Origin: Burkholderiaceae bacterium
Lineage (GTDB): Bacteria; Pseudomonadota; Gammaproteobacteria; Burkholderiales; Burkholderiaceae
Reading direction: 5' to 3'
Assembly (NCBI GenBank): GCA_965234555.1
Contig: OZ248347.1
Span: 1,523,270-1,555,269, forward strand
Length of the DNA: 32,000 nucleotides
In this document: in pieces, positions 8,661-27,087 of the stretch
How the letters are laid out: the number at the start of each line of letters is the position of its first letter
Position numbering within the stretch: the stretch's first letter is position 1
Translations under genes and position numbers: made by a program
Notes under the pieces: model-generated
What the model was told of the DNA's origin: nothing
The model's database searches: none
The model's input: only the letters and a program-made list of their open reading frames with translations

Positions 8661-8662
8661 TA

Positions 8663-11411: not shown

Positions 11412-11483
11412 ATAGCCTCCTATAACCCTTATTAACGATCATTAACTGTTGCTAATCATTATTAGGATAGCAAAGAACTTACA

Positions 11484-13182: not shown

Positions 13183-13189
13183 GTAAGTA

Positions 13190-13218
13190 GGGGCTACTTT
13201 CGGGTAGCCCCATCTTTC
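13190..13218 (+). terminator. hairpin GGGGCTAC-loop-GTAGCCCC with a weak T tract
   Basis: Read directly, downstream of the 12406..13182 CDS. Confidence 0.4.
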
Positions 13219-13253
13219 AACCATTCACTTAATTTCACACTACGGAGAAACCC

Positions 13254-13916: not shown

Positions 13917-13925
13917 GGAGGATAT

Positions 13926-14402
13926 ATGGTTAATTCTAAATTTTTATGTTTAAGCATGAAAAATATCTTAAAGATTGCACTAAACGAACATACGCCACCT
14001 AGGTCGGCAAAAAGTTTAGTTTATGCCTCTAAGATTTTTGCGAATGCTTATTTTGATGAACTCGAATCTACTTACTCAAAAGGTAACGTACGTGCGAGGA
14101 AAAATGGTTTAGAGTTTTTTATTTTAGATTTGATTGTAAATTTTAAAGAGAGGGATGTATCTTTTCCAACCCCTGCATTAATAAACTTACTAAAATCAGA
14201 TCAAGACATTTTTTCCTTTACCAGTAATTTGATTCAAGGTGAAACGCCATTCACAAGTTTGTGGATTGAAACATCAAAAGAAAAAAGGGAGGAAATCATG
14301 AAGGCTCATAAAGTTGTTAGAGCATTTATTGAAGATCGCATTGAGAATGTATTCAACCCTTTGTATGTTTATGTGCCAAAAAGCATACAGAAAAATTACT
14401 GA
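13926..14402 (+). CDS. hypothetical protein (158 aa), AT-rich
   Basis: ORF track; strong AAGGAGG RBS; strong terminator downstream. Confidence 0.6.
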   Translation: MVNSKFLCLSMKNILKIALNEHTPPRSAKSLVYASKIFANAYFDELESTYSKGNVRARKNGLEFFILDLIVNFKERDVSFPTPALINLLKSDQDIFSFTSNLIQGETPFTSLWIETSKEKREEIMKAHKVVRAFIEDRIENVFNPLYVYVPKSIQKNY

Positions 14403-14424
14403 TTACATTAATGACTAAGTTCTT

Positions 14425-14450
14425 AGCCCACTTTCGAGTGGGCTTTTTTC
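14425..14450 (+). terminator. Rho-independent terminator AGCCCACT-TTCG-AGTGGGCT + T6
   Basis: Read directly. Confidence 0.8.
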
Positions 14451-14452
14451 TT

Positions 14453-14469
14453 TGTCGTTTTAAACGACA
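14453..14469. repeat. PAL-5: TGTCGTTTTAAACGACA (perfect)
   Basis: Read directly; lies 3 nt beyond the integrase stop codon. Confidence 0.95.
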
Positions 14470-14472
14470 ATC

Positions 14473-15738
14473 TCAAGCTAACTTATCCGCCACCATGGTT
14501 GGTGTCAATTTGGAATAGTGCCGCTCAATCATGGCGGCACTATTACCCATCTGTTTAGCCAGTGTATGAATATCCACATCACGCTCGATTAAGGATAGGG
14601 TCGCGTAAGTATGCCTAAAGCTATACATGCTGCGCCGTCGTCCGGTGTTGTCAAACAATAGGCCACAGTCTTTCATCAGCCACTTAAAAGCACTGACCAG
14701 ATCATAAGGTCGTGTGCCATCGGGGTAGCGCCACAGATACTCTTCACGCTGCTCGGCGAGCAATTCATCTAGAGATAAAAGCGCCATATCCGCAAATCTT
14801 GATTTAATGCGCTCAATCACTGGGATCGCTTCTTTTCTGGCGATTAACCAACGCCCTCCCGTTTTGCCATCCACCCAAATCCTTAGATACTTAGTACCTG
14901 ACTTATCCATGTGCCACTCCAAGTGTCGCCACTGAATAGTCAGTGACTCCGTACCATGGCGCATACCAGTAGCGAGTAGGATCTCAATGTAGTCACGCAG
15001 TAAGTGTCTGCCCGCATGAGCTTTAGCGGATTTACCACCTTCCACCCACGTAGTCATAAAGTTCATTAGATAGTCCACCTCTTGCCTAGAAAACGCGGGT
15101 CTAGCCACTCCCTTCTCACCTTTGGTGTTAAGTCTAGCGATCAAGTGACGATCACTGAGCCACCCTTTGGCAATGGCTAGGTCATAGACCTTGTTATAGG
15201 CCACCGAATGGGTGGCGAGCGTTGAGGATTTGGCCTTGCGTCCCATCTTAAGATTGCGCCATGCTTCATAGTCACCCACCACCTTGTGATTGATTTTGAC
15301 AAGATCAAAATTACCGAAAAATGGGATGAGATAGGCTTTGATCACAGCCAAATAATCCACGTAGATCTTTTTGCCCACTTCACTATCGAGATCACGTTGT
15401 AGTTCTTGTGCCAATTGCTCTGCCACCACTTTAAACTTTTTCGGGGAGATTGGAAAACCCATTTCTTCCATAAAGCGAGCCCGATCATAGATCTCACCCG
15501 CTTTCTTTTTGGCATAGTCTAGGTCTGAATAGCCTGTAGTGATGCGATACCACTGCTTGTTGTAGAGCTTAAAGGTCATCTGCCACTTGTTACTGCGGGT
15601 ACGCTTATACAACGTGACTTCACCATCGCGGATATGAACTAAACGTCCCGTGGCTAGATTTTCGAGTTTTTTGAGGTGAGGACTTGTTCTGGGCTGCTCA
15701 GCAGTTTGAGCTTCTGAAAAAGCAAGAATCTGTGCCAT
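14473..15738 (-). CDS. tyrosine-type site-specific integrase (421 aa)
   Basis: Catalytic R (ATGMRHGTE), HxxR (FRHTYATL), and H...Y at the C-terminus (GNSAAMIERHYSK); N-terminal arm-type-like domain. Confidence 0.9.
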   Translation of the reverse strand: MAQILAFSEAQTAEQPRTSPHLKKLENLATGRLVHIRDGEVTLYKRTRSNKWQMTFKLYNKQWYRITTGYSDLDYAKKKAGEIYDRARFMEEMGFPISPKKFKVVAEQLAQELQRDLDSEVGKKIYVDYLAVIKAYLIPFFGNFDLVKINHKVVGDYEAWRNLKMGRKAKSSTLATHSVAYNKVYDLAIAKGWLSDRHLIARLNTKGEKGVARPAFSRQEVDYLMNFMTTWVEGGKSAKAHAGRHLLRDYIEILLATGMRHGTESLTIQWRHLEWHMDKSGTKYLRIWVDGKTGGRWLIARKEAIPVIERIKSRFADMALLSLDELLAEQREEYLWRYPDGTRPYDLVSAFKWLMKDCGLLFDNTGRRRSMYSFRHTYATLSLIERDVDIHTLAKQMGNSAAMIERHYSKLTPTMVADKLA

Positions 15739-15786
15739 CCAACTTTTTGGTTTGTGAAAAGCACAGCTTAATTTCGAAACGGATGG

Positions 15787-15801
15787 TTGGGCAACCGAAA
15801 A
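15787..15801 (-). promoter_or_regulatory. shared upstream motif (TTTTCGGTTGCCCAA on the minus strand), 48 nt before the integrase start
   Basis: See 10373-10387; PAL-6 follows 3 nt away. Confidence 0.5.
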
Positions 15802-15804
15802 ATT

Positions 15805-15821
15805 TGTCGTTTAAAACGACA
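15805..15821. repeat. PAL-6: TGTCGTTTAAAACGACA (perfect, centre A)
   Basis: Read directly; 67 nt upstream of the integrase start. Confidence 0.95.
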
Positions 15822-16019
15822 TAGCCAGAGAGGGCTATTTGGCCTGCGGATTACTACAACATCGTAATCATAATAAACATTATGTGATTATTTGGAGAGA
15901 AGAGTTGGTACTTATAAAATTGATTGTTATTCACATTAACGAAAAACTAAAATGAATTACTTGTGATTAAGCTTTTCTTTAGCAGGCATCAATACGGAAA
16001 ATTCTAATAAGCGGGCTTT

Positions 16020-17339
16020 TTATTGAGGAAAAAGTTCTAGCTGTTTTTTTATTTTTTTCGTTTTTGGCCCACCTTTCCCAGTTTCTTTAATAACATTAGC
16101 AACACTTATTGCCTTAAGCATTTGATTCGCAACTGCTCGAATTACTGGTACACATACAGAATTACCAAACTGTTTATAGGTTTGGGCATCAGAAACTGAG
16201 TTAATAATAAATGACTCTGGGAAACCTTGTAAGCGAGCGCATTCTCTTGGCGTAAGCTTTCTTGGATTCTTATTGAGTTTACTTTGGTCAATCAAAATCT
16301 CGCTTCCATCTTTGTAATATCTTGCGCTTATAGTACTTGTGTAAGGACTTTCTTTAGAAAAAAGAGAGTACCCAAATCCATTTCCTTTTATCTGATGCTC
16401 TTCTTTTCTTCGTAAATGGCCTTGCCATAACTTATCTGACAATGTATATTTTTCATCAATTTTTTCAGAGTTTTCAAGAATGTCGCCTAATCTTGTTGGG
16501 GTCATTGGTGGGTCTGGCCAACTAAAGACGTCCTCAAAATCAACATTCTTTCCAAAGTAAGCAGTATCAAAGCCTACGATAAAGATTCGCTCTCTATTCT
16601 GTGGGACTCCAAAATCTCTTGCCCTCAAAACTTTATAGAAGACTTGGTAACGAAGTTTTGCTGATAATGCTTTTCTTGCCTCATCAGACATGGGGATAGT
16701 ATCTGGAATAATCTGTTCGCTTTTGCCTTCCAATATTTCCAAGATATGCTGAAGGGTTCTTCCTTTATCGTGGCCTTTTAATTGCTTTACATTTTCAAGA
16801 AGAAATGCTTTAGGCATCTTTTCAGCTAGGATACGTTGTATCTCAAAAAACATTGTTCCGCGAGAATCATTAAAGCCTTTTTTTAATCCTGCCTGTGAAA
16901 ATGCCTGACAGGGAAATCCACCCAATAAGATGTCATGATCAGGTATATCTTTGGCTTTTATTTTTGTAATGTCTCCATTCGGTAGGTGACCAAAGTTGGT
17001 GGCATAAACTTTTTGAGAAAACTTATCCCATTCAGATGTGAATACACATTTGCCACCAAGCTCTTGAAATGGTAAACGAATACCACCTATGCCTGCGAAA
17101 AGATCAATAAACTTAAATGAATGCTTTACTTTTGCTGGCTGTTTAAATGGAACGTGTGTAGTTAATTGTTTTATTTGCTCCCATTTGGTAGGGGAGGGCT
17201 CATGCTCACCTCTCTCCCAACCGCCTACGGTCCTCTCGCCATGGTTTTTTAAGTTCATTAGGTCTGCGAACTCTATTTGGGTTAGCCCCAATAGCTCTCT
17301 TTTTTCCCTGATATATTTGGCTTTATCTGTAGATTTCAT
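16020..17339 (-). CDS. DNA (cytosine-5)-methyltransferase with an N-terminal XRE-type HTH (439 aa)
   Basis: Motifs FIDLFAGIGG (I), GGFPCQAFS (IV), ENV (VI), QNRERIF (VIII), TPRECARLQGFP (IX), GNSV (X). The ISARYYKDGSEILI segment recalls Dcm/EcoRII/SsoII-type target-recognition domains. Confidence 0.92.
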   Translation of the reverse strand: MKSTDKAKYIREKRELLGLTQIEFADLMNLKNHGERTVGGWERGEHEPSPTKWEQIKQLTTHVPFKQPAKVKHSFKFIDLFAGIGGIRLPFQELGGKCVFTSEWDKFSQKVYATNFGHLPNGDITKIKAKDIPDHDILLGGFPCQAFSQAGLKKGFNDSRGTMFFEIQRILAEKMPKAFLLENVKQLKGHDKGRTLQHILEILEGKSEQIIPDTIPMSDEARKALSAKLRYQVFYKVLRARDFGVPQNRERIFIVGFDTAYFGKNVDFEDVFSWPDPPMTPTRLGDILENSEKIDEKYTLSDKLWQGHLRRKEEHQIKGNGFGYSLFSKESPYTSTISARYYKDGSEILIDQSKLNKNPRKLTPRECARLQGFPESFIINSVSDAQTYKQFGNSVCVPVIRAVANQMLKAISVANVIKETGKGGPKTKKIKKQLELFPQ

Positions 17340-17483
17340 AGGCTTTTAACTTTTAACTTATCCTGATTTTTACCCTGATTTTTATTTAATTTTAGCTTCA
17401 TTCTCCATAAAAGATACTCACGTCTTTGAATAGGCACGGCATCTCGTGGTATGTTGGAAGCTTCTAAATGCTAGGGCTATTTA

Positions 17484-18236
17484 ATGTCTGAAAAGGACAT
17501 AATCATCAGGCTGTTTAATGAGCGAGTTAGGGGCAGGCATCCTGAAACAACTTCATTTAATCAGCGTCACGATGGAAAGGTTGGGCATTGGCTTGAGAAA
17601 CAAATGGGTATTCATGCCAATAGCAGTAATACACCAGATTTATTTGGTTATGAAATGAAAAATGACACAACTTCTAAGACCACATTTGGGGATTGGTCCG
17701 CGAACTATTACATATTCAAGAGAAATAATCCTTATGGGCTTACTCGAAGTGACTTCCTTCGTATTTTTGGAAAACCAAATCCTCTAAAAAATGGACGTCA
17801 CTCTTGGTCAGGCGAACCCATACCATCAATAAAGGGGGTAAATAAGTTTGGGCAAAACTTATTCATAGATAGTGAAAATAATATTCACGCAAAGTATCAC
17901 TATTCAAAAGATGAACGACCAGACAAAGTCTCTATTGTTCCCTTTAGCTTGAGAATTGATGATTTGACAATAGCGCGATGGGATGCCGGTAAGCTTCAAA
18001 AAAAAGTTGAAAATAAATTTAATAAGATGGGTTGGTTTAAATGTTTACGGGATTCTACAGGCGCATACTCATCTATTGTGTTTGGTGACCCAATAAATTA
18101 TGAAACTTGGATTAGCTTAGTCAAAACTGGTGACATTTACTTTGATAGTGGTATGTATGAAGGTAACATAAGGCCTTATTCTCAATGGAGAGCTGATAAT
18201 GCTCTTTGGAACAAGCTCATAACGAGTAAACACTGA
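17484..18236 (+). CDS. type II restriction endonuclease candidate, MutH/BcnI/MvaI-like PD-(D/E)xK (250 aa)
   Basis: GHWLEKQMGI-x9-PDLFGYEMK resembles the MutH/Sau3AI/BcnI catalytic motif. Divergent from the methyltransferase and AT-rich. Confidence 0.7.
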   Translation: MSEKDIIIRLFNERVRGRHPETTSFNQRHDGKVGHWLEKQMGIHANSSNTPDLFGYEMKNDTTSKTTFGDWSANYYIFKRNNPYGLTRSDFLRIFGKPNPLKNGRHSWSGEPIPSIKGVNKFGQNLFIDSENNIHAKYHYSKDERPDKVSIVPFSLRIDDLTIARWDAGKLQKKVENKFNKMGWFKCLRDSTGAYSSIVFGDPINYETWISLVKTGDIYFDSGMYEGNIRPYSQWRADNALWNKLITSKH

Positions 18237-18247
18237 GGTAGATTAGT

Positions 18248-18781
18248 ATGATTCGCTGGACATATTTTCCTAAAAACAAACCTATTACTAAGCTAGGTTT
18301 TGAAATAGTCGAGGTATTTCAAAAGCATGAGGATACTATTTCATCCACATCCAATAATCACTTAATTGGGACCGGCACGACAGACTCTCATAGTAATAGT
18401 GTTTTAGAGAAGTTAGCTAAATCTTTGGCTAGTATAGGGTTTCAGGTAGAGACGGGAAAAAAGGCTTCCCAAAAAATTCATGTTCCTGTTCTTTATGGGG
18501 AGCAAGGTAAGCCCATCCAATCATTTGATGCTGATGCCTTCAATCCAAACGAAAAGTTTGTCCTTGAGGTAGAAGCTGGAAGAGCAGTTAGTAACTATCA
18601 ATTTCTTAAAGATTATTTTCAGGCTTGCGTAATGGTGGATGTTGACTATTTAGCAATTGCTGTCAGGCAGGTTTATAACAAACAAAAAGACTACGAAACA
18701 GTCTGTGGCTTCTTTGATACCTTGTATTCAAGTGGTCGCCTAAAAACAGAGTTAAAAGGTGTCTTGATTGTTGGATATTAA
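18248..18781 (+). CDS. second nuclease-like protein (177 aa) with a D...ExE motif
   Basis: FDADAF-x9-VLEVEAGR is reminiscent of BamHI/BglII-type PD-(D/E)xK sites; starts 12 nt after the upstream R gene. Confidence 0.45.
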   Translation: MIRWTYFPKNKPITKLGFEIVEVFQKHEDTISSTSNNHLIGTGTTDSHSNSVLEKLAKSLASIGFQVETGKKASQKIHVPVLYGEQGKPIQSFDADAFNPNEKFVLEVEAGRAVSNYQFLKDYFQACVMVDVDYLAIAVRQVYNKQKDYETVCGFFDTLYSSGRLKTELKGVLIVGY

Positions 18782-18962
18782 GACTCTCTAAATATCTCTT
18801 ATGGTAATTGTATTTTTATTATTTTTAATCTGATTTAATTTTTTGACAAACGCTGGAACTAAAAATTTTTAATTTTTTTCTTGTGAATTGTTATTAAATA
18901 GGCTGAGGCTCATCTGGTGATCTTTTAATCCCCTATGCTTAGGATACTTTATGGGAGGATCT

Positions 18963-19118
18963 ATGAAAAAACGTCTTTATAGCTTAGGTTTTGGGATCGC
19001 ATTTGTATCTTCTTTGTTTCTAAGTCAGGCAGTATTAGCCTGTACCACTCAAACCCTAATAGTAGGTGGCAAGATGACCGTGTGTACTGTCTGCGGCACA
19101 GTTGTGTCTTGTATGTAA
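18963..19118 (+). CDS. small lipoprotein (51 aa precursor, lipobox VLAC; mature peptide has 4 Cys)
   Basis: Translated by hand; GGGAGG RBS; below the ORF-track size cut-off. Confidence 0.5.
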   Translation: MKKRLYSLGFGIAFVSSLFLSQAVLACTTQTLIVGGKMTVCTVCGTVVSCM

Positions 19119-19128
19119 GGAGGTTCTT

Positions 19129-19452
19129 ATGAGATTCTTATTTTTAATCGCTGGGTTGGCCGTATTGCCCGTACAAGCACAAATCACATTCTTTAATGAT
19201 TCTTTGGGCATGCCACTGGGCACAGCCAATCAAGTAGGTAACACCACGTTTTACAGCGATGCCATGGGGTTACCTTTGGGCACAGCACAAACCATTGGTA
19301 ATACAACCTTTTATAGCAACAGTCTTGGCTTGCCGTTGGGTACGGCGAATACTCCACAACCTATCCCTTCATACACGCCCCGCTACGGTCCGCCGTCGTC
19401 TCCAACTTTTCCTACAGCGCCACTATTTCCAACCAGTCCTCGTGGTATGTGA
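19129..19452 (+). CDS. secreted tandem-repeat protein (three repeats of about 20 aa, GNTTFYSxxxGxPLGTA, plus a Pro-rich tail)
   Basis: ORF track 19102..19452, start moved to the ATG at 19129 behind an AAGGAGG RBS; signal peptide ..PVQAQ. Confidence 0.6.
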   Translation: MRFLFLIAGLAVLPVQAQITFFNDSLGMPLGTANQVGNTTFYSDAMGLPLGTAQTIGNTTFYSNSLGLPLGTANTPQPIPSYTPRYGPPSSPTFPTAPLFPTSPRGM

Positions 19453-19501
19453 TGATTTATATTTAGATTATGTGAACACTTGCTGAACGCAGATTAAAGA
19501 A

Positions 19502-19870
19502 ATGAGCCAGAAAAAGTACAAAGTAGTTACCCATGAGGCCAATTACACCCCACCTGATTTTGGCTCACTACTTCCAGTTAATGAATTTGATACAGCGGAA
19601 GAAGCAATCAAGTGCCTCAAGCAAGTCATAGATAAGCAACTATTAGCATCCCTAAATGAAGGGAAAACACCTAAAGACACATATGACTTATTTTCTCTTT
19701 ATGGTGAGATTCCCATTATTGAAGGGGAACCAAGGGTGTATGTACATCCTTTTGAATATGCTAAAAAGAGAATTCAGGAGCTGGCCTATCTGAAGATCAT
19801 AAAAAAAATTGATGATCATATGTACCTAAAAGAACAAGAAAATTTGAAGTCAATCAAAAAAGATGATTGA
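19502..19870 (+). CDS. hypothetical protein (122 aa)
   Basis: ORF track; no family recognised. Confidence 0.5.
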   Translation: MSQKKYKVVTHEANYTPPDFGSLLPVNEFDTAEEAIKCLKQVIDKQLLASLNEGKTPKDTYDLFSLYGEIPIIEGEPRVYVHPFEYAKKRIQELAYLKIIKKIDDHMYLKEQENLKSIKKDD

Positions 19871-19991
19871 TAATTACTAGATTTTGATATAGACTGAAAG
19901 TACATCAAGAGATGGCTTTGTCGCCACAGCAACCTGCTAACGCAGTAAGGTGCTAAAAAGATGAGACTCTATACGAGTAATCAAAAGCGAC

Positions 19992-20016
19992 AAACCCGTC
20001 TTTTGGCGGGTTTTTT
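19992..20016 (+). terminator. hairpin AAACCCG-loop-CGGGTTT + T tract
   Basis: Read directly; lies inside the 5' extension of ORF 19961..20770, which argues for the later start. Confidence 0.5.
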
Positions 20017-20083
20017 ATTGGGCGGATTTATTCCTACTTGCCATGCCCAGACAGGTGTCGAAATAGCTAAATTGGAGAAAGAA

Positions 20084-20770
20084 ATGAAAACTAATCACTT
20101 TGCTTTTTATCGTAAACGCATCCGCCAACCCCAAGAAAAGATTGCTGAAATACTAAATGTTCCATTAGATGTCTATATTGAATTTGAGGAGAACAAACGA
20201 GAGTCGTCTCAGCGGGTTAAAGAAGCTTTTGATTCTTTGTTAGCTCGCTTTCCCGGCAGCACAGATTTGTCATCATTAAAGATGCCTGCTATTGACCGGT
20301 ACAAAGCGGATTACCTATTTAAAACTGGTAAACAGCCTACAGGTAAGCATTGGATTCCATTTTCGTTCGCAACAAGCAAAAGAACGCTGGTTGATTTCAG
20401 TCCTTACGATGATGATTTAAATAAGGGAGTTATTAAGACTGAAGCAGAAATGAATCAATGGATCAATGAGCATGACTTACCTCCAATGATCACACCTGAA
20501 TACTTTAATCACCTAACCACACTGAATAATCGAGAGCTTCAAGAAGAGGCAGAATTTTGGGATAGATTTTATACAGCTCAGCATTATGGGAAATATAAGT
20601 CGAGAACAACACCAAAAGAACTTGAGGAGCAAATTAGGAGGAAAAGTGAGCAAACTAGAACGTATTGGATTAATAGAGTTCATAGTGTGCTGTTAAAACT
20701 ATTCGCAGGGCTAATTATTCTATGGGCTATTGCTTATCTAATTTTATGGTTAGATAGGTATAAACTTTAA
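20084..20770 (+). CDS. membrane-anchored protein with a weak N-terminal HTH-like segment and a C-terminal TM helix (228 aa)
   Basis: ORF track 19961..20770, start moved to the ATG at 20084 (GGAGAAAGAA RBS). C-terminal LLKLFAGLIILWAIAYLILWL. Confidence 0.5.
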   Translation: MKTNHFAFYRKRIRQPQEKIAEILNVPLDVYIEFEENKRESSQRVKEAFDSLLARFPGSTDLSSLKMPAIDRYKADYLFKTGKQPTGKHWIPFSFATSKRTLVDFSPYDDDLNKGVIKTEAEMNQWINEHDLPPMITPEYFNHLTTLNNRELQEEAEFWDRFYTAQHYGKYKSRTTPKELEEQIRRKSEQTRTYWINRVHSVLLKLFAGLIILWAIAYLILWLDRYKL

Positions 20771-20771
20771 T

Positions 20772-20788
20772 TGTCGTTTTAAACGACG
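20772..20788. repeat. PAL-7: TGTCGTTTTAAACGACG (1 mismatch)
   Basis: Read directly; begins 2 nt after the stop of the upstream CDS. Confidence 0.85.
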
Positions 20789-20815
20789 TTATAAATCGAG
20801 GTTATAGCTCATACT

Positions 20816-21079
20816 ATGAGCCACAATAACTTTATTCTTCCTAGAGAATCAGCTTTTTTTAAGTCGGGAGAACCCATGAGTAATGTTGAAATTCTAGGAA
20901 AATTCAAGTGCCAGCCTATTAAAGTTAGATTGCGAGATGAACTCAATCCATTTAATCAATTGAAATCCAAAACAACAGCTCTTCCCTTAACTTATACAGA
21001 TTTAGTCTATGAGCGCGATGTCACAGATCAAAATCTCACTAACTACGAAGGCTCTATGAATAAGTTAAAAACGAAATAA
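20816..21079 (+). CDS. hypothetical protein (87 aa; alternative start at 20876)
   Basis: ORF track. Confidence 0.4.
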   Translation: MSHNNFILPRESAFFKSGEPMSNVEILGKFKCQPIKVRLRDELNPFNQLKSKTTALPLTYTDLVYERDVTDQNLTNYEGSMNKLKTK

Positions 21080-21110
21080 ACAAAAGATTAATTAATTTAT
21101 CAAGGCACAC

Positions 21111-21608
21111 ATGAGAGAACTTTCACACCTTTTTACCAGAGAAACCCCAAGACAAATCATTCTTGAAGACTTCAAGATTGATCTTCCAATCACTGGCAGC
21201 TGGGGGTATGACTTTGAATCAGCCTGCGTTATTGATAAAAATGATCCGATAGTAAACCAAACTATTCCATTTAATGGTGTGAGCATTGAATATATATTTG
21301 TTGAAAAACGAATATACGAGGAGATGATTATTTTCCGCGAGGCTAATGAAAAATTCTCAGGCATTAGGTGGGATCTAGAAAAACAAGAGCTTGTCTTTCA
21401 AAATGAAAAGCCTTACGACAAGCTTACTTTTAAGGTTGTAGGCTTTGCTGATGAGGTGTGGGACGAGCTAACAAGGCGTTTTGAAGAACTCAAAAATAAA
21501 GGTCAATTAGATCTACTTCCTGAATTAGACGCCTATAGGGATTCGAAAGCCTATAGATTTACTAGAGAGTATTACTTTGATATTTCAAGCTTTTATGGTC
21601 AGCCGTGA
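21111..21608 (+). CDS. hypothetical protein (165 aa)
   Basis: ORF track. Confidence 0.5.
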   Translation: MRELSHLFTRETPRQIILEDFKIDLPITGSWGYDFESACVIDKNDPIVNQTIPFNGVSIEYIFVEKRIYEEMIIFREANEKFSGIRWDLEKQELVFQNEKPYDKLTFKVVGFADEVWDELTRRFEELKNKGQLDLLPELDAYRDSKAYRFTREYYFDISSFYGQP

Positions 21609-21635
21609 TCTGGTTTGCCCACCAAGATATGCGAC

Positions 21636-21652
21636 TGTCATTTAAAACGACA
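21636..21652. repeat. PAL-8: TGTCATTTAAAACGACA (1 mismatch, centre A)
   Basis: Read directly. Confidence 0.85.
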
Positions 21653-21684
21653 CATTCCATAACCTCACGGATGGGATATTCCCC
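21653..21684 (+). repeat. R-box copy (CATTCCATAACCTCACGGATGGGATATTCCCC)
   Basis: Near-identical to 23936-23966 and similar to 26928-26957; always immediately right of a PAL. Confidence 0.85.
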
Positions 21685-21699
21685 AGTTTGAGCTTGGCT

Positions 21700-21730
21700 G
21701 GGGCGGAATCGAACCAGGGCCGAGGATGTC
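21700..21730 (-). repeat. L-box copy; minus strand reads like a tRNA T-loop plus 3' acceptor remnant (..GGTTCGATTCCGCCCC)
   Basis: Similar to 22788-22823 and 23863-23901. Confidence 0.75.
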
Positions 21731-21869
21731 TGATCCACCCAACTAATTTACCCCTAAATCACCCACTTTGAGGAGATAGGATATGGTTGGTAGGCTTTTA
21801 GCCATCACACCCTGCTTGCATAATGAAAGGCTTGTGTTTCATATTCAATCGATGGGTTAGTGCTACCAG

Positions 21870-22691
21870 CTATTTTTTTAGATTTTGTTTTAAAAACATG
21901 GCTACTGCATCACGTGCATTTGTTGCGTCATATGTATTGTCATGACCCGTACCGCCAAGCTCAAGCGTTGTTAGCGATCCATCCATCCTTCCGTTTGAAC
22001 ATCTTGATTTTGCTTGTCCAAACCAAGGATCGATACTATATGAGATTACAAGACTCCTTACACCCTGTTCAAATCCAATACCCGTAAAACAAAAACCGCT
22101 TGATAAAACTATTCCGCGTATACCTTCTATCTGGGTTCGAGCAAGGGCCTCTGCACCTTCACTGTGTCCCATAAAAAATATGTTATCAACATCTACCCAT
22201 GATAATTTTTTAAGCTCAAGCATTGCATACGCAATCTCTTGTTCTCTATAAGGAATAGCCATTGGAAAATTATTTGTTACCGAATTAGTACGGGAGTCGC
22301 AATTTGAAATTCTTTTTGGCCTAGCAAAGCTATCTGGCAGTATCACGACAAATCCGAGATTAGCAATATATTGCCCCCATTGTTGATCATGATAAGACTG
22401 TATGCCTGCACAACCATGAAGATAGATAGCCACAGGATATTTTTGGTCTAATTTTATATTTTTGATTCTTTTTGCAAAATTACTTTCTGGAATAAAAACC
22501 ATAGCTTTATCCCAGCTATTTTCAATGCCCTTGTCCATATGAATTTTTCCTGCAGCCCTATCTTTTGCTAATTGCTCGATATACCTATCCCCATCGGCTA
22601 TAGATTCAGACCCTGGTGGCTCCTCAAGAGCATGACTACTAAATGTCAAAAATAATAGTGCTGAAAATAATAGCTTTAAGGAAAGTTTCAT
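21870..22691 (-). CDS. secreted alpha/beta hydrolase (dienelactone-hydrolase-like), 273 aa
   Basis: Signal peptide; nucleophile elbow GHSEGA. Confidence 0.7.
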   Translation of the reverse strand: MKLSLKLLFSALLFLTFSSHALEEPPGSESIADGDRYIEQLAKDRAAGKIHMDKGIENSWDKAMVFIPESNFAKRIKNIKLDQKYPVAIYLHGCAGIQSYHDQQWGQYIANLGFVVILPDSFARPKRISNCDSRTNSVTNNFPMAIPYREQEIAYAMLELKKLSWVDVDNIFFMGHSEGAEALARTQIEGIRGIVLSSGFCFTGIGFEQGVRSLVISYSIDPWFGQAKSRCSNGRMDGSLTTLELGGTGHDNTYDATNARDAVAMFLKQNLKK

Positions 22692-22787
22692 ATTTTTCTA
22701 ATATTTTTATTGAGGTTATTTAACTTTAACATTCAAATTTGATTAAGAATGAACAAATCATCTCAAGCTAGTTATGATGTTTCTTGC

Positions 22788-22823
22788 GTGGCCCGAGGCA
22801 AAATCAGCTTGGGCTGAGCATGC
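22788..22823 (-). repeat. L-box copy (diverged)
   Basis: About 30 of 36 positions match 23865-23900 by hand alignment. Confidence 0.7.
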
Positions 22824-22840
22824 TCATCGCGTGCTTATTC

Positions 22841-22857
22841 TGTCGTTTTAAACCACA
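22841..22857. repeat. PAL-9: TGTCGTTTTAAACCACA (1 mismatch)
   Basis: Read directly; followed by a degenerate R-box (..GCACAGGGATGGAACATC..). Confidence 0.85.
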
Positions 22858-23007
22858 TCTACTGGCACAGGGATGGAACATCTTTGTAGCTCCCCCCACC
22901 GCTACATGAAGCCTTGCTTTAAAGAACATTACTTAATTGCGCTCAATAAATTAACCAGGCCGCGAAAATAAGATTACGTCTAAGTAATCGTAAATGTAAA
23001 ATCTGTA

Positions 23008-23682
23008 ATGAAAATTATTACTAATTCAATATCAAATGATCTTATGCTAAAAAATTTATTTGTGATCATTGTTTCTTGTGCCTTGATAGGCTGCTCTGCA
23101 ACGATGGGGCCAAGTGGGGATCAAACTAGGCCTGGCATTATTGTATTACCCACAAGCGGCGGCGTTCATCATGAGAATTCTTATGCCTCACAACTCAGCA
23201 GAAAAGGTTTTCAGGTAGTGGTTGCTGACTACCATCAACGCGGTGGCACAGACAATATAACCTTAGCCTATGATGCTCTCCGTAAAGATCCTCGAGTTGG
23301 AAAAATTGGAATGGTTGGGTTTAGTCGTGGAGCAGTTATGGGCGCAAATCATGCTTATTTTCTCCACCAAAACAGCGATCGAAAAATTGATGCGATTGTG
23401 AGTTTTTATATTGGGCCCACAACGCCACATGCTAATACATCAATACTGCCGATATTATTTTTACAAGGTGAATTAGATAATTATGTTAAGCCAAATCAAT
23501 TGATACAGTTTTGTAACGCTTTGGATGCCAGCGGCAAGCGTTGTAAGGTAAAAGAGTTTAAAAATGTGGGGCACGCTTTTGATCAAACGAGAACCCTGCC
23601 AATTTATTCAGGCTTTAATCGCGAGGCTACTGAAGATTCCTATGATCTAACCATACAATGGCTTAATCAGTGGCTTAAATAA
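23008..23682 (+). CDS. lipoprotein alpha/beta hydrolase (dienelactone-hydrolase family), 224 aa
   Basis: Lipobox LIGC; nucleophile elbow GFSRGA; C-terminal GHAF. Confidence 0.7.
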   Translation: MKIITNSISNDLMLKNLFVIIVSCALIGCSATMGPSGDQTRPGIIVLPTSGGVHHENSYASQLSRKGFQVVVADYHQRGGTDNITLAYDALRKDPRVGKIGMVGFSRGAVMGANHAYFLHQNSDRKIDAIVSFYIGPTTPHANTSILPILFLQGELDNYVKPNQLIQFCNALDASGKRCKVKEFKNVGHAFDQTRTLPIYSGFNREATEDSYDLTIQWLNQWLK

Positions 23683-23711
23683 TTACTTTTGTTGTGCCGA
23701 CTATCAAAAAA

Positions 23712-23728
23712 TATCGTTTTAAACGACA
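23712..23728. repeat. PAL-10: TATCGTTTTAAACGACA (1 mismatch)
   Basis: Read directly. Confidence 0.85.
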
Positions 23729-23756
23729 TCGACTGACATAAGGATGAATAATTGAC

Positions 23757-23775
23757 GCGTCCTTTTAAAGGACGC
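23757..23775. repeat. variant palindrome GCGTCCTTTTAAAGGACGC (different arms, same TTTTAAA centre)
   Basis: Perfect 9-1-9 palindrome read directly, inside the gene-less PAL-10 to PAL-11 interval. Confidence 0.8.
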
Positions 23776-23862
23776 TTCATGATGGGGATATCCGGCTCTA
23801 ATGGCGTCTAAGCCTACCAAGCCCAAAAGAAAATAGCCCAACAAGTGGGCTATTGAGATTCT

Positions 23863-23901
23863 TGGTGGCCCGGGGCGGAATCAACTAGGGCTGAGGATGC
23901 C
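23863..23901 (-). repeat. L-box copy; minus strand ends ..GATTCCGCCCCGGGCCACCA (T-loop end, T-stem, 7-nt acceptor strand, A, CCA)
   Basis: The spacing is exactly that of a tRNA 3' end. The T-stem 5' strand does not pair, so this is a remnant and not a gene. Confidence 0.7.
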
Positions 23902-23918
23902 TAACTCTAACTCTAGAC

Positions 23919-23935
23919 TGTCGTTTTAAACGACA
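23919..23935. repeat. PAL-11: TGTCGTTTTAAACGACA (perfect)
   Basis: Read directly; flanked by an L-box on the left and an R-box on the right. Confidence 0.95.
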
Positions 23936-23966
23936 AATTCCATAACCTCACGGATGAGATATTCCC
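23936..23966 (+). repeat. R-box copy
   Basis: AATTCCATAACCTCACGGATGAGATATTCCC; continues into a promoter-like block homologous to 26958-27010. Confidence 0.85.
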
Positions 23967-24019
23967 ATGGTTGGGCATGGCTGGCTCTTGAGACCTTTTG
24001 ACCTTATAATTACTAGTTC

Positions 24020-24050
24020 GGCGAATTAGCTCAGCTGGTTAGAGCGACGG
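24020..24050 (+). pseudogene. tRNA-Met 5' fragment (positions 1-31) with the island-borne upstream block
   Basis: 31/31 identity to 27011-27041; the upstream ~85 nt is homologous to 26928-27010. Confidence 0.9.
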
Positions 24051-24065
24051 GATCCGACTCCGAAC

Positions 24066-24455
24066 CTACAAAAGCGGTTGAACAAACGCAAACCATCCAC
24101 CTATCATTAATAAGCTAAGGCTAATCCAATAAATTCGTTCTGAGAATTTCCGTGTTTTTAAGCAGGCATCACGCATCTTAGGATCAATCGGACATGGGGC
24201 ATTTCGATTACGCCACTGCAATATGCCGCCAATGAGCATCAAACCACTACTTAATGCAAATATCGCCTCTTTATGCTCGCTAATCCACACAATCTTTGGA
24301 AATACAGATACTAAAGAGGCGAGCGTTGCCCCCGCACCCAAACTGACCAGGAGTGCGGGGATGGCACAGCAAATGAGGGTACTCGAACTCGCAAAGAGGC
24401 TAATTAAAGAACTGATATAGCTTGTCTTTGTTTCATTCAAGCCGTCTTGACTCAT
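24066..24455 (-). CDS. MerT-like heavy-metal transport membrane protein (copy 2)
   Basis: 129 aa; same CC and C..C motifs as copy 1. Confidence 0.6.
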   Translation of the reverse strand: MSQDGLNETKTSYISSLISLFASSSTLICCAIPALLVSLGAGATLASLVSVFPKIVWISEHKEAIFALSSGLMLIGGILQWRNRNAPCPIDPKMRDACLKTRKFSERIYWISLSLLMIGGWFAFVQPLL

Positions 24456-24778
24456 TTTTTATCCTTCTGCTGAGCCCTAAACTGGGCAACTGTCTGGGAG
24501 ATCGTTTCAATCTTGACCACGTCGTAGCCTGAGTCTTTAATCTCTTGACTAATCAGCTTCTCGTTTAAGGTTTTACCTTCCTTTGCCTCAACGACCACTA
24601 CTTTATTTTTGAGATCCACAAAAACGGCTTTGGTCTCATCCATCTTTGAAATACTTTTTTCAATACCTTGGGCACAAAACGAGCAAACCATGCCATTGAC
24701 AGTGACCTTCATGCTTGCCAGTGCGGTCTGACTCAAACCCATTAATGCGATTGCGATGATTAAGTTGATCTGTTTCAT
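24452..24778 (-). CDS. periplasmic HMA-domain protein (copy 2)
   Basis: 108 aa, GMVCSFC; 6 differences from copy 1. Confidence 0.85.
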   Translation of the reverse strand: MKQINLIIAIALMGLSQTALASMKVTVNGMVCSFCAQGIEKSISKMDETKAVFVDLKNKVVVVEAKEGKTLNEKLISQEIKDSGYDVVKIETISQTVAQFRAQQKDKK

Positions 24779-24788
24779 CTTGATTCTC

Positions 24789-25439
24789 CTAATAGTTATA
24801 CATAAAGTTAAAACGCAGTTGTCCTGATAAATTGGCGCCTGCCTCTACAAAGTACCGTTTATGAATGACCCTTACCATCGGGGTGAACTCATACTGCTTA
24901 GAAACAAAGGTCATACGCCTTGCCTCAACCACGATCCAGGGCTGAGGCTCATCGTAGTCAGCCTCATAAAAGGAGGCGCCCAAACGAGCCGTAGTGATAT
25001 TGCTCGTGGCCCCCTGTGCCGCATAGACCCGGGCTGATGCCATGGAATAAAAGCGGGTAGTCTCATAATCCACCTGAATACCGGGTGACGCCATGGCTTT
25101 TGAGCCACCAAAGGTATTTCCGGTTGTAGAGCCAAGGCCGCCAATAAACCAGATATTGGCTTGAGCCTCTGGCAGATTCCAGCGCGCTACCTTGCGGGTG
25201 TAAACCGCTTCAAGATTTTGCTGTTTTGACACAGAGTTATCCGTTTGCATAGCGCTTGCTGAAATTCCAAATGCATCGTTTGCGGTAGTGGCATAGTTCA
25301 AGCCAAACTCCTGATAGGTTTTACTAAAGTCACCCATCAGCATCCAGCTGTTCTTAAACCCCATCGGTGCCGCAAATGAATTTGAGACAGCTCCCACCAC
25401 TAGCAGAAAAAAACTCGCCAGACTAATCGCTTGCTTCAT
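24789..25439 (-). CDS. putative outer-membrane beta-barrel protein (copy 2)
   Basis: 216 aa; mature part nearly identical to copy 1. Confidence 0.55.
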   Translation of the reverse strand: MKQAISLASFFLLVVGAVSNSFAAPMGFKNSWMLMGDFSKTYQEFGLNYATTANDAFGISASAMQTDNSVSKQQNLEAVYTRKVARWNLPEAQANIWFIGGLGSTTGNTFGGSKAMASPGIQVDYETTRFYSMASARVYAAQGATSNITTARLGASFYEADYDEPQPWIVVEARRMTFVSKQYEFTPMVRVIHKRYFVEAGANLSGQLRFNFMYNY

Positions 25440-25717
25440 TTGAGTTTTTCCATCACTGTGATATCAAGCGTTCCATCAACAACCTTAATCTGGAATCGAA
25501 CCCTGTCTCCAGGTCGATATTGATCCAATGGAATCTCCTTAACCACCCCAAAAGGCATGGTCATCGGGGCCATCTTGATACTGGGTATGTACTCATGCTT
25601 GAGCACAATACGGCTACGTGATTGATCAACACGCACTACTTCGCCATTAACCCATTCGGGGCTGGCATAGACATAGACCGAAAATAGACTGAGGAATACA
25701 ACAATCAATCGCTTCAT
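25436..25717 (-). CDS. CusF-like periplasmic metal-binding protein (copy 2)
   Basis: 93 aa; MAPMTMPF motif. Confidence 0.8.
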   Translation of the reverse strand: MKRLIVVFLSLFSVYVYASPEWVNGEVVRVDQSRSRIVLKHEYIPSIKMAPMTMPFGVVKEIPLDQYRPGDRVRFQIKVVDGTLDITVMEKLK

Positions 25718-25772
25718 TTAACTCTCCAAAAAAGATCAAACCCAAAATTTGGGCGGACTTATCCTAGGGGAG

Positions 25773-26138
25773 TTAAAGAATGGGTGGCTTATTAGCGACC
25801 GAGAGGTCGATACCCGTTAGTGTTTTGAGGGAGGTAGAAAAAGTTTGTGTAAATCGATCTGTTATTAGCGCAGGAACAGAATTTGGTAATAAACCAAAGG
25901 CCATGCATAAAGTACATGAGTAGCATCGATCCCCATTCACTTCAATGGCTTGGTGACTATCCATGGAATGTTGAGCTGCATCACCATTTTGGTGACAAGG
26001 ATGGGCTGCTACCGACTCCTGCATCTGGCTCACGGGGGTGACAAGCATTTTTTGCATGCCCATATCCAACACCGCCCAAGCTTGGACAGGTATTAGAGCA
26101 ATCAAGGAAACAAGCAATAATCTTTTAAACATAGACAT
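25773..26138 (-). CDS. small secreted Cys/His-rich protein (copy 2, most diverged member)
   Basis: 121 aa; HPCHQ and CYSCTLC conserved, central region differs from copy 1. Confidence 0.55.
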   Translation of the reverse strand: MSMFKRLLLVSLIALIPVQAWAVLDMGMQKMLVTPVSQMQESVAAHPCHQNGDAAQHSMDSHQAIEVNGDRCYSCTLCMAFGLLPNSVPALITDRFTQTFSTSLKTLTGIDLSVANKPPIL

Positions 26139-26215
26139 AGCTTAGCACCATCAGAATAAGTCTGCAGAGTAGCTTTGTCAGCTAAAAATCCCCAATTTGC
26201 TGCAGTCCACAATTT

Positions 26216-26249
26216 GGTGAAATAGCTCAGCTGGTTAGAGCGATGGAAT
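26216..26249 (+). pseudogene. diverged tRNA-Met-like 5' fragment (GGTGAAATAGCTCAGCTGGTTAGAGCGATGGAAT)
   Basis: 3 substitutions relative to 27011-27044 (2 in the acceptor stem, 1 in the anticodon stem); same upstream context as fragment 7086. Confidence 0.8.
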
Positions 26250-26855
26250 GGACAATCGAAAACTCAAATTAGCATCTACTGCTGGGAATTCGTCTGCCAA
26301 AATACTGTAAACACAAGTATCTCGAATACTAGCTTTGGCATCTGGGTGACGATTAATTTGATGACTTCGTAATACGCCATCTAATTTCGCCCCCAATCTC
26401 TCAATACCTCGACGACTTTGATGATTAAAGAAATGAGTACGAAATTCCACTGCAATACAATCAAATTTTGTGAATGCGTGACGTAACAATAGCAATTTAC
26501 ATTCCGTATTAATTGCTGTTCGCTGAGCCGACTGTCGATACCAAGTAGACCCTATCTCGAGTCTGCGATTATCCTGATCAATATTCATGTAAGTTGTCAT
26601 TCCAATGGGGCTCCCTTTGGCATCCAAAACACAAAATGGATTCATAGAGCCCAACTGCTGTAAGCCCAAACGCCTATCAATCTCCTTTGCCATTGCCTCA
26701 GGCGAAGGAATGCTTGTGTACCAAAGTTTCCAAAGTTCACCATCTCTAACAGCTTCACATAAACCATCATGATGCGCCATTGTTAATGGCACTAATGTGG
26801 CATGCTTACCTTGTAGGGTTACTGATTCCGAGAATTTCATAGCGGGATATGTCAA
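26235..26855 (-). CDS. GNAT-family N-acetyltransferase (RimJ/RimL-like), 206 aa
   Basis: Length and layout (..LRHAF......IAVEFRTHFFNHQSRRGIERLGAKLDGVLR..) are typical of the GNAT fold. The last ~5 codons are encoded by the tRNA remnant. Confidence 0.75.
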   Translation of the reverse strand: MTYPAMKFSESVTLQGKHATLVPLTMAHHDGLCEAVRDGELWKLWYTSIPSPEAMAKEIDRRLGLQQLGSMNPFCVLDAKGSPIGMTTYMNIDQDNRRLEIGSTWYRQSAQRTAINTECKLLLLRHAFTKFDCIAVEFRTHFFNHQSRRGIERLGAKLDGVLRSHQINRHPDAKASIRDTCVYSILADEFPAVDANLSFRLSIPSL

Positions 26856-26894
26856 TGGCTGTGAATCTTCATTCTGCCATACGGATGGAGAACT

Positions 26895-26909
26895 TTGGGT
26901 AACCGAAAA
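26895..26909 (-). promoter_or_regulatory. shared upstream motif (TTTTCGGTTACCCAA on the minus strand), 39 nt before the GNAT start
   Basis: See 10373-10387; PAL-12 follows 1 nt away. Confidence 0.45.
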
Positions 26910-26910
26910 C

Positions 26911-26927
26911 TGTCGTTTTAAACGTCA
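26911..26927. repeat. PAL-12: TGTCGTTTTAAACGTCA (1 mismatch)
   Basis: Read directly; 83 nt upstream of the intact tRNA. Confidence 0.85.
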
Positions 26928-26957
26928 CACCCACAACCTCACGGATCGGATATTCCC
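26928..26957 (+). repeat. R-box copy (CACCCACAACCTCACGGATCGGATATTCCC)
   Basis: Homologous to 21653-21684 and 23936-23966. Confidence 0.8.
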
Positions 26958-26995
26958 GTGGTTGAGCTTGGCTGGCTCTTGAGCCCTTTTGACCT

Positions 26996-27001
26996 TATAA
27001 T
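26996..27001 (+). promoter_or_regulatory. consensus -10 hexamer TATAAT, 9 nt before the tRNA 5' end (island-borne promoter candidate)
   Basis: Read directly; duplicated at 24005-24010; no convincing -35 (TGGCTC at 17-nt spacing). Confidence 0.35.
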
Positions 27002-27010
27002 ACCTAGTTC

Positions 27011-27087
27011 GGCGAATTAGCTCAGCTGGTTAGAGCGACGGAATCATAATCCGCAGGTCCGGGGTTCAAATCCCTGATTCGCCACCA
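27011..27087 (+). tRNA. tRNA-Met (anticodon CAT); could instead be tRNA-Ile2 if C34 is lysidinylated
   Basis: Hand-folded cloverleaf: acceptor GGCGAAT/ATTCGCC, D arm GCTC..GAGC, anticodon arm ACGGA-ATCATAA-TCCGC, V loop AGGTC, T arm CGGGG-TTCAAAT-CCCTG, encoded CCA; 77 nt. Confidence 0.9.

Follow-up and report, generated by a model that had tools for sequence, protein, structure and literature searches.

Bacteria of the genus Polynucleobacter are among the most abundant in freshwater and their strains differ mainly in genomic islands, and a standing question is how plankton whose genomes are streamlined and free of conjugative elements shuffle small sets of genes. A stretch of 32,000 nucleotides from a Burkholderiaceae contig (OZ248347.1, positions 1,523,270 to 1,555,269; hereafter the window, with positions counted from its first nucleotide), which contains the Polynucleobacter-1 RNA and whose close relatives are all Polynucleobacter assemblies, poses this question beside a single tRNA-Met gene: what divides the DNA between 20772 and 27010 into short modules of one to few genes? 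The divider is a 17-bp palindrome, PAL (TGTCGTTTWAAACGACA), of which 12 copies with up to three mismatches lie between 7327 and 26927; dinucleotide-preserving shuffles of the window contained a mean of 0.12 copies, and none of 100 reached 12. The original prediction took the array for an analogue of an integron, in which PAL and two flanking arms, the L-box and the R-box, form a folded junction of about 105 nt resembling attC. The underlying observation is largely real, and its interpretation is partly supported: the window does hold a tRNA-integrating island that brings its own promoter and tRNA 5' half, and does not hold an attC-like junction.

An island assembled at a tRNA-Met gene

The island is a strain-specific insertion of 20 kb in the tRNA-Met gene of a freshwater Polynucleobacter, and was built by repeated integrations. 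In a conspecific metagenome contig (L132), which is 99.1–99.8% identical to both window flanks, window position 7124 is joined to 27006 through a 44-nt overlap that corresponds to the tRNA-Met 5' half; this contig has no PAL. The same site is also empty in two further contigs (L131 and L134), and no PAL is found at the empty site in any of the three. Within the window, the 39–44-nt 5' half forms a direct repeat at 7086 and 27011, and further copies lie at 24020–24053 and 26216–26249. The displaced half at 7086–7124, together with the empty site in L132, therefore delimits the island to 7125–27049, and the additional copies split it into the tandem units U1, U2, and U3 (Table 1). Thus the island holds at least three tandem units, each ending in a promoter and a tRNA 5' half, which accords with the original account of an element that supplies both. 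The end of U2 has no PAL, and its left junction is also present in another locus (L068); the 5' half of U3 (27011–27049) completes the intact gene, such that the array terminates, as described at the outset, in an island-borne promoter and tRNA 5' half (PAL-12, R-box, TATAAT box, and tRNA-Met at 27011–27087). As the conspecific site is empty, lacks PAL, and is joined through the 44-nt tRNA half, the primary mode of accretion is tandem integration at the anticodon loop of tRNA-Met.

The crossover lies in this loop, after CATAA; the 5' half of the gene is replaced and its promoter is supplied by the element. To our knowledge, it is nearly always the 3' part of a tRNA that such elements replace. 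Island-borne promoters are of at least two types, one associated with the R-box and one native-like (L072, L090, L098, L130), and L130 carries two other islands in tandem at the same tRNA-Met site. In another conspecific contig (L133, 4150–4420), the tRNA-Met 3' half is adjoined at this crossover by a different island, which brings no 5' half; there the tRNA-Met gene appears to have been disrupted and not restored.

PAL as a crossover point

PAL (NEVERTHELESS) is a feature in its own right, and more than a scar of integration. One line of evidence comes from the ends of homology blocks shared between loci: 116 of 932 internal ends fall within 15 nt of a PAL centre (randomised mean 12, maximum 23), with peaks at ±8, the edges of the 17-mer. 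When only blocks of at least 90% identity are considered, 20 of 243 ends coincide with PAL edges (expected 2.5, maximum 8), placing recent block ends there 8–10 times more often than chance, and many of these lie more than 700 nt from any tRNA remnant. PAL-9 is itself a recent breakpoint, since locus L155 is 97% identical to the window on its right and unrelated on its left, and the same one-sided identity is seen at PAL in the pairs L064/L103 (99%), L105/L114 (98%), and L151/L152 (98%). In these pairs, the two loci have rare variants in common in the half of PAL beside the shared flank, and the other half and the centre base differ. The centre base differs in 3 of 58 pairs that share both flanks (5%) and in 55 of 144 that share one (38%), and in one-flank pairs 53 differences fall in the half beside the shared flank versus 79 in the other half. 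These half-wise and centre-base differences make junction PALs look like chimeras arising from exchange within the palindrome; crossovers map inside PAL.

Flank families are shuffled across PAL, with one of them, R2, found beside more than 15 different partners, whereas chance matches to PAL (in Pelagibacteraceae and Bacillales) always have the same two flanks. When one gene module was sought between differing outer flanks, most results were the non-coding composite PAL-R2-PAL2, in which PAL2 is a second palindrome described below. Relatives of the 224-aa dienelactone hydrolase of the array (DLH224) sit in other PAL arrays with different neighbours (L148–L155), and between the genes for DLH224 and the upstream 269-aa protein L155 has one module where the window has two. 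These differences, together with varied cargo, mean that related arrays vary at the cassette level. The original prediction is supported in that PAL behaves as a point of module exchange in related islands, and in that cargo is carried in short, PAL-bounded modules of mixed orientation.

The geometry of the site is strict. Arms of TGTCG and CGACA flank a 7-nt spacer, TTTWAAA, in a sharply bounded and nearly symmetric arrangement, and sequence conservation stops abruptly at the edges of the 17-mer. The spacer is 7 nt long in 149 of 156 GTCG..CGAC pairs, reading TTTWAAA in 130 instances and the asymmetric variant CTTAAAT in eight. Positions 5 and 13 are G..C 147 times and C..G 48 times (hybrids, three), and the centre base is T in 114 sites and A in 109. 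Most sites (156 of 167) lie outside any open reading frame (ORF) of at least 150 aa; 38 of 173 flanking ORF 3' ends fall 0–10 nt from PAL, and no flanking ORF starts within 4 nt, and only one within 11 nt. PAL occurs in the arms of the attP (attachment) sites of both tRNA-Met and tRNA-Phe elements, as well as between backbone and cargo genes. PAL-4 lies within codons 16–21 of a 258-aa ORF, where it encodes VVLND and is kept in homologues among otherwise variable first codons. PAL-3 (10598) was rejected as a functional site, being a coincidence of DVLN codons within the gene for the small recombinase: only the closest relatives (about 77% nucleotide identity; L159, L163, L165) retain the palindrome, and more distant homologues keep the DVLN codons and lose it. 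A role of PAL as a promoter spacer or operator was not supported, as no consistent −35/−10 pattern surrounds PAL or PAL2 by eye or by consensus scan.

A scan for exact matches to the PAL pattern in one genome per species returned at least 120 stretches; among those listed, about half come from Polynucleobacter or betaproteobacterial assemblies, often with two to six sites per 8 kb. Among the PAL matches listed, same-genome hits fall in adjacent blocks and the others are single sites in unrelated taxa, and the seven single matches in viral contigs are at chance level. No PAL was found in the core flanks (about 12 kb) or in the empty-site contigs, and in all sequence examined PAL occurs only in mobile islands, those of Polynucleobacter across the genus. 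No paper with the PAL sequence, or on palindromes in Polynucleobacter islands, emerged from literature searches, and the system appears undescribed.

A further palindromic motif, approximately ATATGCGTATATACGCATAT, repeatedly adjoins PAL in other Polynucleobacter islands (L020 ~1140, L029 ~1170, L092 ~1100, L105 ~2290 and ~7200, L108 ~5000, L112 ~5860), and a non-coding box of about 290 nt (TTTATAGACACTATGGTGGTTGACTGG...) is bounded by PAL next to unrelated sequences. PAL arrays also occur in contigs assigned to other betaproteobacterial genera from freshwater, namely in metagenome-assembled genomes (MAGs) of Methylophilaceae (L101), Limnohabitans (L088), and Comamonadaceae (L102), and in a locus with 52% GC (L087). 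Backbone genes were detected in L101 and L087, a homologue of the large integrase in L102, and none in L088; either members of this family are found in several genera, or the binning of these contigs is at fault.

Junction anatomy

The two arms that flank PAL derive from tRNA attachment sites. The L-box consists of the final ~25 nt of tRNA-Phe(GAA), with CCA, in reverse complement, and a conserved island arm after them. It matches real tRNA-Phe genes at every base as far as the T-loop, beyond which the similarity ends, and in many Polynucleobacter genomes an intact tRNA-Phe lies 70–160 nt from PAL or PAL2. The R-box is the arm that precedes the island-borne TATAAT box and tRNA-Met 5' half; the window has three copies of it, and L130 and L135 have it in the same place. 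What had been read as attC-like arms are instead att remnants of two tRNA genes, the 3' end of tRNA-Phe and the upstream arm of tRNA-Met, and the island contains three tRNA-Phe 3' remnants. The interval of 0.2 kb that was thought empty is in fact a conserved region from downstream of tRNA-Phe with an att remnant, and belongs to a composite (23712–23935) that matches about 50 other loci. Similarly, the supposed 3-kb module between PAL-11 and PAL-12 comprises two units, because it is divided by the tRNA-Met 5'-half copy at 26216–26249 and not by PAL. Ordinary tandem integration at tRNA genes explains several boundaries that had been attributed to cassettes.

As single-stranded DNA, the junction at 23863–23966 reaches −12.4 kcal/mol, compared with −9.35 ± 2.1 for shuffles (z −1.43), and when extended to 23985 it gives z −1.16; the centroid structure retains the PAL stem only. 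The 31-nt stretch around PAL (23912–23942) reaches −5.7 kcal/mol (z −3.4), forming a 7-bp stem with a 3-nt loop. An attC-like long hairpin was therefore rejected on the basis of five junction-containing folds (z −0.3 to −1.4): the ~105-nt unit of L-box, PAL, and R-box, proposed to be a long imperfect inverted repeat, folds no better than shuffled sequence.

Modules and cargo of the array

PAL-7 to PAL-12 partition 20772–27010 as first described, and module sizes and contents are also as claimed, comprising hypothetical proteins of 87 and 165 aa, two dienelactone-hydrolase-type proteins, an HMA/CusF metal cluster, and a GNAT acetyltransferase. A 77%-identical homologue of the 165-aa protein is followed by PAL within a tRNA-Phe island (L077). 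Metal cluster B (24072–26249), which encodes a 129-aa membrane protein, HMA, a 216-aa protein, CusF, and a 121-aa protein, is placed between two tRNA-Met 5' halves and is 83% identical in nucleotide sequence to the chromosomal cluster A (4934–7124). Exact-protein look-ups (DLH224, the 165-aa ORF, the integrase Int421, and GNAT) returned contigs of identical arrangement or nothing, indicating that the collection holds no close variant of this island.

In L068 (1493–3759), a metal cluster 84% identical to A and 83% to B is preceded by a decayed tRNA half at the same junction; the 'native' cluster A may itself be an ancient integrated unit. Upstream of the array, cargo at 16020–18781 consists of a type II restriction-modification system, with a C5 cytosine methyltransferase that has an N-terminal helix-turn-helix (HTH; 439 aa) and a LlaMI/BcnI-family endonuclease (250 aa), and then a 177-aa protein of no assigned function. 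A SAM-I/IV riboswitch in the cargo (19897–19994, plus strand; 66 bits against a gathering score of 41) lies just upstream of, and overlaps the start of, the gene for the 269-aa hypothetical membrane protein, and this region is kept in L155 (79% identity).

Table 1. Positions of island, junction, module, and backbone features in the window.
Feature	Position	Strand	Remarks
Displaced chromosomal tRNA-Met 5' half (attL)	7086-7124	+	with native promoter
Intact tRNA-Met (CAT)	27011-27087	+	5' half and promoter from island, 3' half chromosomal
Tandem unit U1	7125-24053		right end: R-box copy 2, TATAAT box, tRNA-Met 5' half
Tandem unit U2	24054-26249	-	metal cluster B, then native-type promoter and tRNA-Met 5' half (26216-26249)
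Tandem unit U3	26250-27049		GNAT gene, PAL-12, R-box copy 3, promoter, tRNA-Met 5' half (27011-27049)
PAL-1 to PAL-6	7327, 8663, 10598, 12453, 14453, 15805		upstream of array
PAL-7	20772-20788		TGTCGTTTTAAACGACG; starts 1 nt past stop codon of 269-aa ORF
PAL-8	21636-21652		TGTCATTTAAAACGACA
PAL-9	22841-22857		TGTCGTTTTAAACCACA
PAL-10	23712-23728		
PAL-11	23919-23935		
PAL-12	26911-26927		
R-box copy 1	21653-21701	+	fused to tRNA-Phe 3' remnant (reverse complement, ~21694-21716)
L-box of PAL-9	22785-22840	-	decayed tRNA-Phe 3'-end remnant, terminator remnant, island arm
Composite junction	23712-23935		PAL-10, R2 box, PAL2, tRNA-Phe terminator and 3' remnants, arm, PAL-11
PAL2 in composite junction	23758-23774		CGTCCTTTTAAAGGACG; second palindrome, of TGTCCTTTWAAAGGACA type
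tRNA-Phe terminator remnant	23832-23854	-	
Last 25 nt of tRNA-Phe, including CCA	23863-23887		reverse complement
R-box copy 2, TATAAT box, tRNA-Met 5' half	23936-24053	+	5' half at 24020-24053
R-box copy 3	26928-26975		
Module 1, 87-aa hypothetical gene	20816-21079	+	
Module 1, 165-aa hypothetical gene	21111-21608	+	
Module 2	21870-22691	-	273-aa secreted alpha/beta (dienelactone-type) hydrolase
Module 3 (DLH224)	23008-23682	+	224-aa lipoprotein dienelactone hydrolase
GNAT acetyltransferase	26235-26855	-	TTG-start ORF runs 15 nt past U3 left boundary into tRNA-Met half
Conserved backbone	7327-15821		PAL-1, PAL-2, DUF6641, Polynucleobacter-1 RNA, 188-aa recombinase, 265-aa ORF, 258-aa ORF, AAA+, PAL-5, integrase, PAL-6
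DUF6641 gene	8680-9198	-	
Polynucleobacter-1 RNA (RF01718)	9300-9439	+	79 bits
188-aa Xer/FimB-like recombinase	10446-11012		
421-aa integrase	14473-15738	-	flanked by PAL-5 and PAL-6

Backbone genes and recombinases

The backbone of U1 recurs in many loci, together with an integrase of about 420 aa. Four loci chosen by homology to the 258-aa ORF rather than by PAL (L159, L163, L164, L165) all have PALs at the same backbone positions; loci chosen in this way carry copper, czc, or chromate resistance genes as cargo, where the window has restriction-modification and hydrolase genes. The large integrase gene occupies one of two positions in backbones that are about 77% identical in nucleotide sequence: in L159 and L163 it is on the plus strand, to the left of DUF6641, and in the window and L164 it is on the minus strand, to the right of the AAA+ gene. 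In L159 it is flanked by PALs at 323 (upstream) and 2020 (downstream). The relative orientation of integrase module and backbone block in L159 and L163 differs from that in the window and L164, a difference that is not between near-identical genomes.

Neither recombinase gene adjoins the array end, and both encoded tyrosine recombinases fall far below the integron-integrase cut-off, upholding the claim that IntI is lacking. The 188-aa protein scores 39 bits against TIGR02249 (cut-off 265), and the 421-aa integrase has no match to integron-integrase models at E ≤ 0.01. The former can be aligned along its entire length with models of FimB/E-type invertases, including PRK09870 (E 1e-8, below cut-off), and of Xer catalytic domains, and has no N-terminal core-binding domain; by our own reading, candidates for each of the catalytic residues of tyrosine recombinases (R, K, HxxR, H, and Y) are present. 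Among other backbone products, the AAA+ protein is clamp-loader-like, and neither a primase nor a helicase could be recognised by domain searches. Sequence searches of Pfam, NCBIfam, PHROG, and PDB gave no match for the 258-aa ORF, and its AlphaFold model (pLDDT 70) has no Foldseek match at E ≤ 0.001.

The Polynucleobacter-1 RNA adjoins the DUF6641 gene and is divergent to it, and has the same position in five other loci (L035 527–662, L047 1229–1366, L012 6967–7103, L065 2294–2429, L094 3043–3192), which indicates that this orphan RNA motif belongs to the present family of integrative elements.

Mechanism and rival explanations

We propose, as a reading whose chances we put at about even, that PAL is a secondary crossover site and the core site of an element-encoded tyrosine recombinase, for which the 188-aa enzyme is the likeliest candidate. 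In a first layer of this scheme, large integrases would insert elements at tRNA-Met (in the anticodon loop) and at tRNA-Phe (in the T-loop), building tandem arrays in which each incoming element supplies a promoter and a new tRNA 5' half, and pushes earlier elements and the old half upstream. The stretch from 21.6 to 24 kb in U1 carries units assembled earlier at a tRNA-Phe 3' end, with the L-boxes as their remnants. In a second layer, modules would be exchanged, inverted, or relocated between related islands at PAL. The layout of PAL, with inverted 5-nt arms and a 7-nt AT-rich overlap, is that of a small tyrosine-recombinase core, and because the site is nearly symmetric, recombination in either orientation would be possible. 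That the exchange is enzymatic and site-specific, and that this enzyme performs it, we infer. Several considerations weigh against the proposal. At 5 bp, the arms are short for the core site of a tyrosine recombinase, the tie between PAL and the 188-aa enzyme is one of co-occurrence alone, and the 7-bp stem could equally suit a protein that binds hairpins or one that binds DNA as a dimer. The scarcity of PAL/PAL2 hybrids shows that there is no free recombination between the two classes, and as L164 has no PAL between its AAA+ and integrase genes, not every rearrangement junction carries one. Further, the pair statistics use non-independent pairs, and most analysed loci were chosen for containing PAL. 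Neither an excised circle nor a clean empty site with a single PAL was found, nor did near-identical genomes show a clean inversion bounded by PAL, and the 'secondary landing pad' for cassette capture that was originally envisaged stays conjectural; candidate pairs with one and two PALs (L042/L033, L103/L117) are ambiguous because all also carry tRNA-Phe remnants.

In a different role, PAL would be bound by a dimeric protein that the element encodes (PAL as a repressor site or 'stoperator', as a KorB/ParB-like global operator or centromere, or as the site of an accessory factor shaping attP arms), and modules would be exchanged as a side effect of short-homology recombination at a sequence that heterologous elements have in common. 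A perfect palindrome of 17 bp with sharp boundaries and two symmetric classes fits homodimer operators. Also in favour of this role are the presence of one PAL in each arm of tRNA-Met and tRNA-Phe attP, some 50–200 nt from the crossover, its retention within the variable 5' codons of the 258-aa gene, and its exact preservation where backbone proteins diverge to 40–50% identity (L087, L101). We nevertheless consider this role rather unlikely, given that breakpoints fall inside PAL and not in the longer conserved boxes beside it, and that 17 bp is shorter than is usual for efficient exchange by RecA; moreover, many PALs abut stop codons or sit between convergent genes, away from promoters, and no HTH or ParB domain is recognisable in the backbone proteins, nor any fold match for the 258-aa model. 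It is less probable still, and in our estimation a poor prospect, that PAL is a structural palindrome akin to repetitive extragenic palindromes (REPs), acting as an mRNA 3'-end stabiliser, weak terminator hairpin, or cruciform, and spread by unknown means. Since palindromes attract illegitimate recombination, rearrangements would be expected to cluster at such a structure, and the stable 7-bp stem with its 3-nt loop, the compensatory G-C to C-G swaps that separate PAL from PAL2, the unconstrained centre base (114 T, 109 A), and the bias of sites to gene 3' ends and convergent intergenic regions are all compatible with it. However, it is the sequence itself, and not pairing alone, that is kept across distant elements, and the PAL3 form keeps the arms around an asymmetric spacer that breaks the stem. 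PAL-5 directly follows a canonical terminator, and so is not needed for termination, no T-run follows PAL, no HUH/RAYT-type gene was found in the window, and copies are missing from the ~12 kb of core flank and from the empty-site contigs. Least credible, and very improbable in light of the fold and flank analyses that contradict it, is the model from which this work set out, of a ~105-nt attC-like folded site and an integron analogue that captures circular cassettes. Its attractions are real, in that modules are short and hold one to few genes, PAL often comes right after a stop codon, as attC does, and another array (L153) also has the composite of tRNA-Phe arm, PAL, and R-box. Yet the long hairpin is no better than shuffles, the L-box and R-box are missing from most PALs and are both tRNA att remnants, and conservation ends at the 17-mer. 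There is also no IntI and no common cassette orientation (the modules run +, +, −, +, −), and PAL contains no GTTRRRY core, all as already stated in the original prediction; an Rfam scan gave no attC-type match at E ≤ 1.

Comparison with known systems and significance

The island layout is closest to that of tycheposons and additive flexible islands, which are tRNA-seeded tandem arrays of tyrosine-recombinase elements with tRNA-Met among their described targets (Prochlorococcus, bioRxiv 10.1101/2020.12.28.424599; Methylophilaceae, PMC10872708). The tRNA direct repeat, the empty site in relatives, the tandem units separated by partial tRNAs, and the recombinases are all present here, as in tRNA-seeded additive islands. 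Like tycheposons, the element sits at a tRNA, has partial tRNA repeats between its units, and accumulates integrase remnants and cargo, and conspecific strains have an empty site or a different island; the likeness is one of layout. In contrast to tycheposons, which replace the tRNA 3' end, the element exchanges the 5' half of tRNA-Met and carries a promoter of its own, its attP arms share 100–250 nt with the target region, and an extra 17-bp palindrome punctuates backbone and cargo and marks exchange points.

At the level of modules, the nearest counterparts are dif modules, which are bounded by pdif (XerC/XerD) sites in Acinetobacter plasmids (PMC6449649, PMC13141974). In both systems, modules of one to few genes lie in either orientation and in differing contexts between short near-palindromic sites, without a dedicated integron integrase and on comparative evidence; the pattern by which dif modules are recognised, of the same modules in different contexts with breakpoints at the sites, is found for PAL. 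Unlike pdif (28 bp, 11-6-11, matching host dif), PAL spans 17 bp (5-7-5) and has no dif-like arms by inspection, and it occupies a chromosomal tRNA island rather than a plasmid, with a candidate enzyme that is element-encoded rather than host XerCD. The system works like dif modules and stands outside that family, and it is not an integron. Integrons and clusters of attC sites lacking integron integrases (CALINs) share with it compact cassettes, a repeat immediately after the stop codon, and cargo of unknown or adaptive function; they differ in that here there is no IntI, attI, or Pc, orientation is mixed, and no extended hairpin is supported, and in that attC is conserved in structure over 57–141 bp, whereas PAL is conserved in sequence over 17 bp. 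FimB/FimE invertons and shufflons have in common with it a recombinase of about 190 aa that lacks the N-terminal core-binding domain, short sites of AT-rich centre, and some evidence of segments in both orientations among related elements, but here the sites are many, extend over 20 kb, and bound segments that differ in content too. Neisseria dRS3 and intergenic mosaic elements (NIMEs), and enterobacterial REPs and bacterial interspersed mosaic elements (BIMEs), resemble PAL as short intergenic palindromes that flank mosaic units at points of rearrangement or insertion; they occur genome-wide in hundreds of copies, in contrast to PAL, which is island-confined in the sequence examined.

It is conceivable, if on balance doubtful, that PAL and a conserved recombinase reduced to its catalytic domain constitute a previously undescribed cassette-exchange platform of freshwater Betaproteobacteria. 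Through the symmetric 17-bp core site, modules of one to few genes, and even the element's own integrase gene, would on such a platform be excised, inverted, and re-inserted among tRNA-Met and tRNA-Phe islands. Having evolved within tycheposon-like elements, the platform would correspond in function to integrons and dif modules. Irrespective of this, replacement of the tRNA 5' half together with promoter supply departs from the more usual replacement of the 3' part, and the orphan Polynucleobacter-1 RNA motif is now placed on a mobile element. The 17-bp site and the 188-aa recombinase could become a compact recombination tool. For the biology of these freshwater bacteria, a crossover site defined by sequence makes the shuffling of modules directly testable, and island boundaries in metagenomes could be sought by means of PAL.

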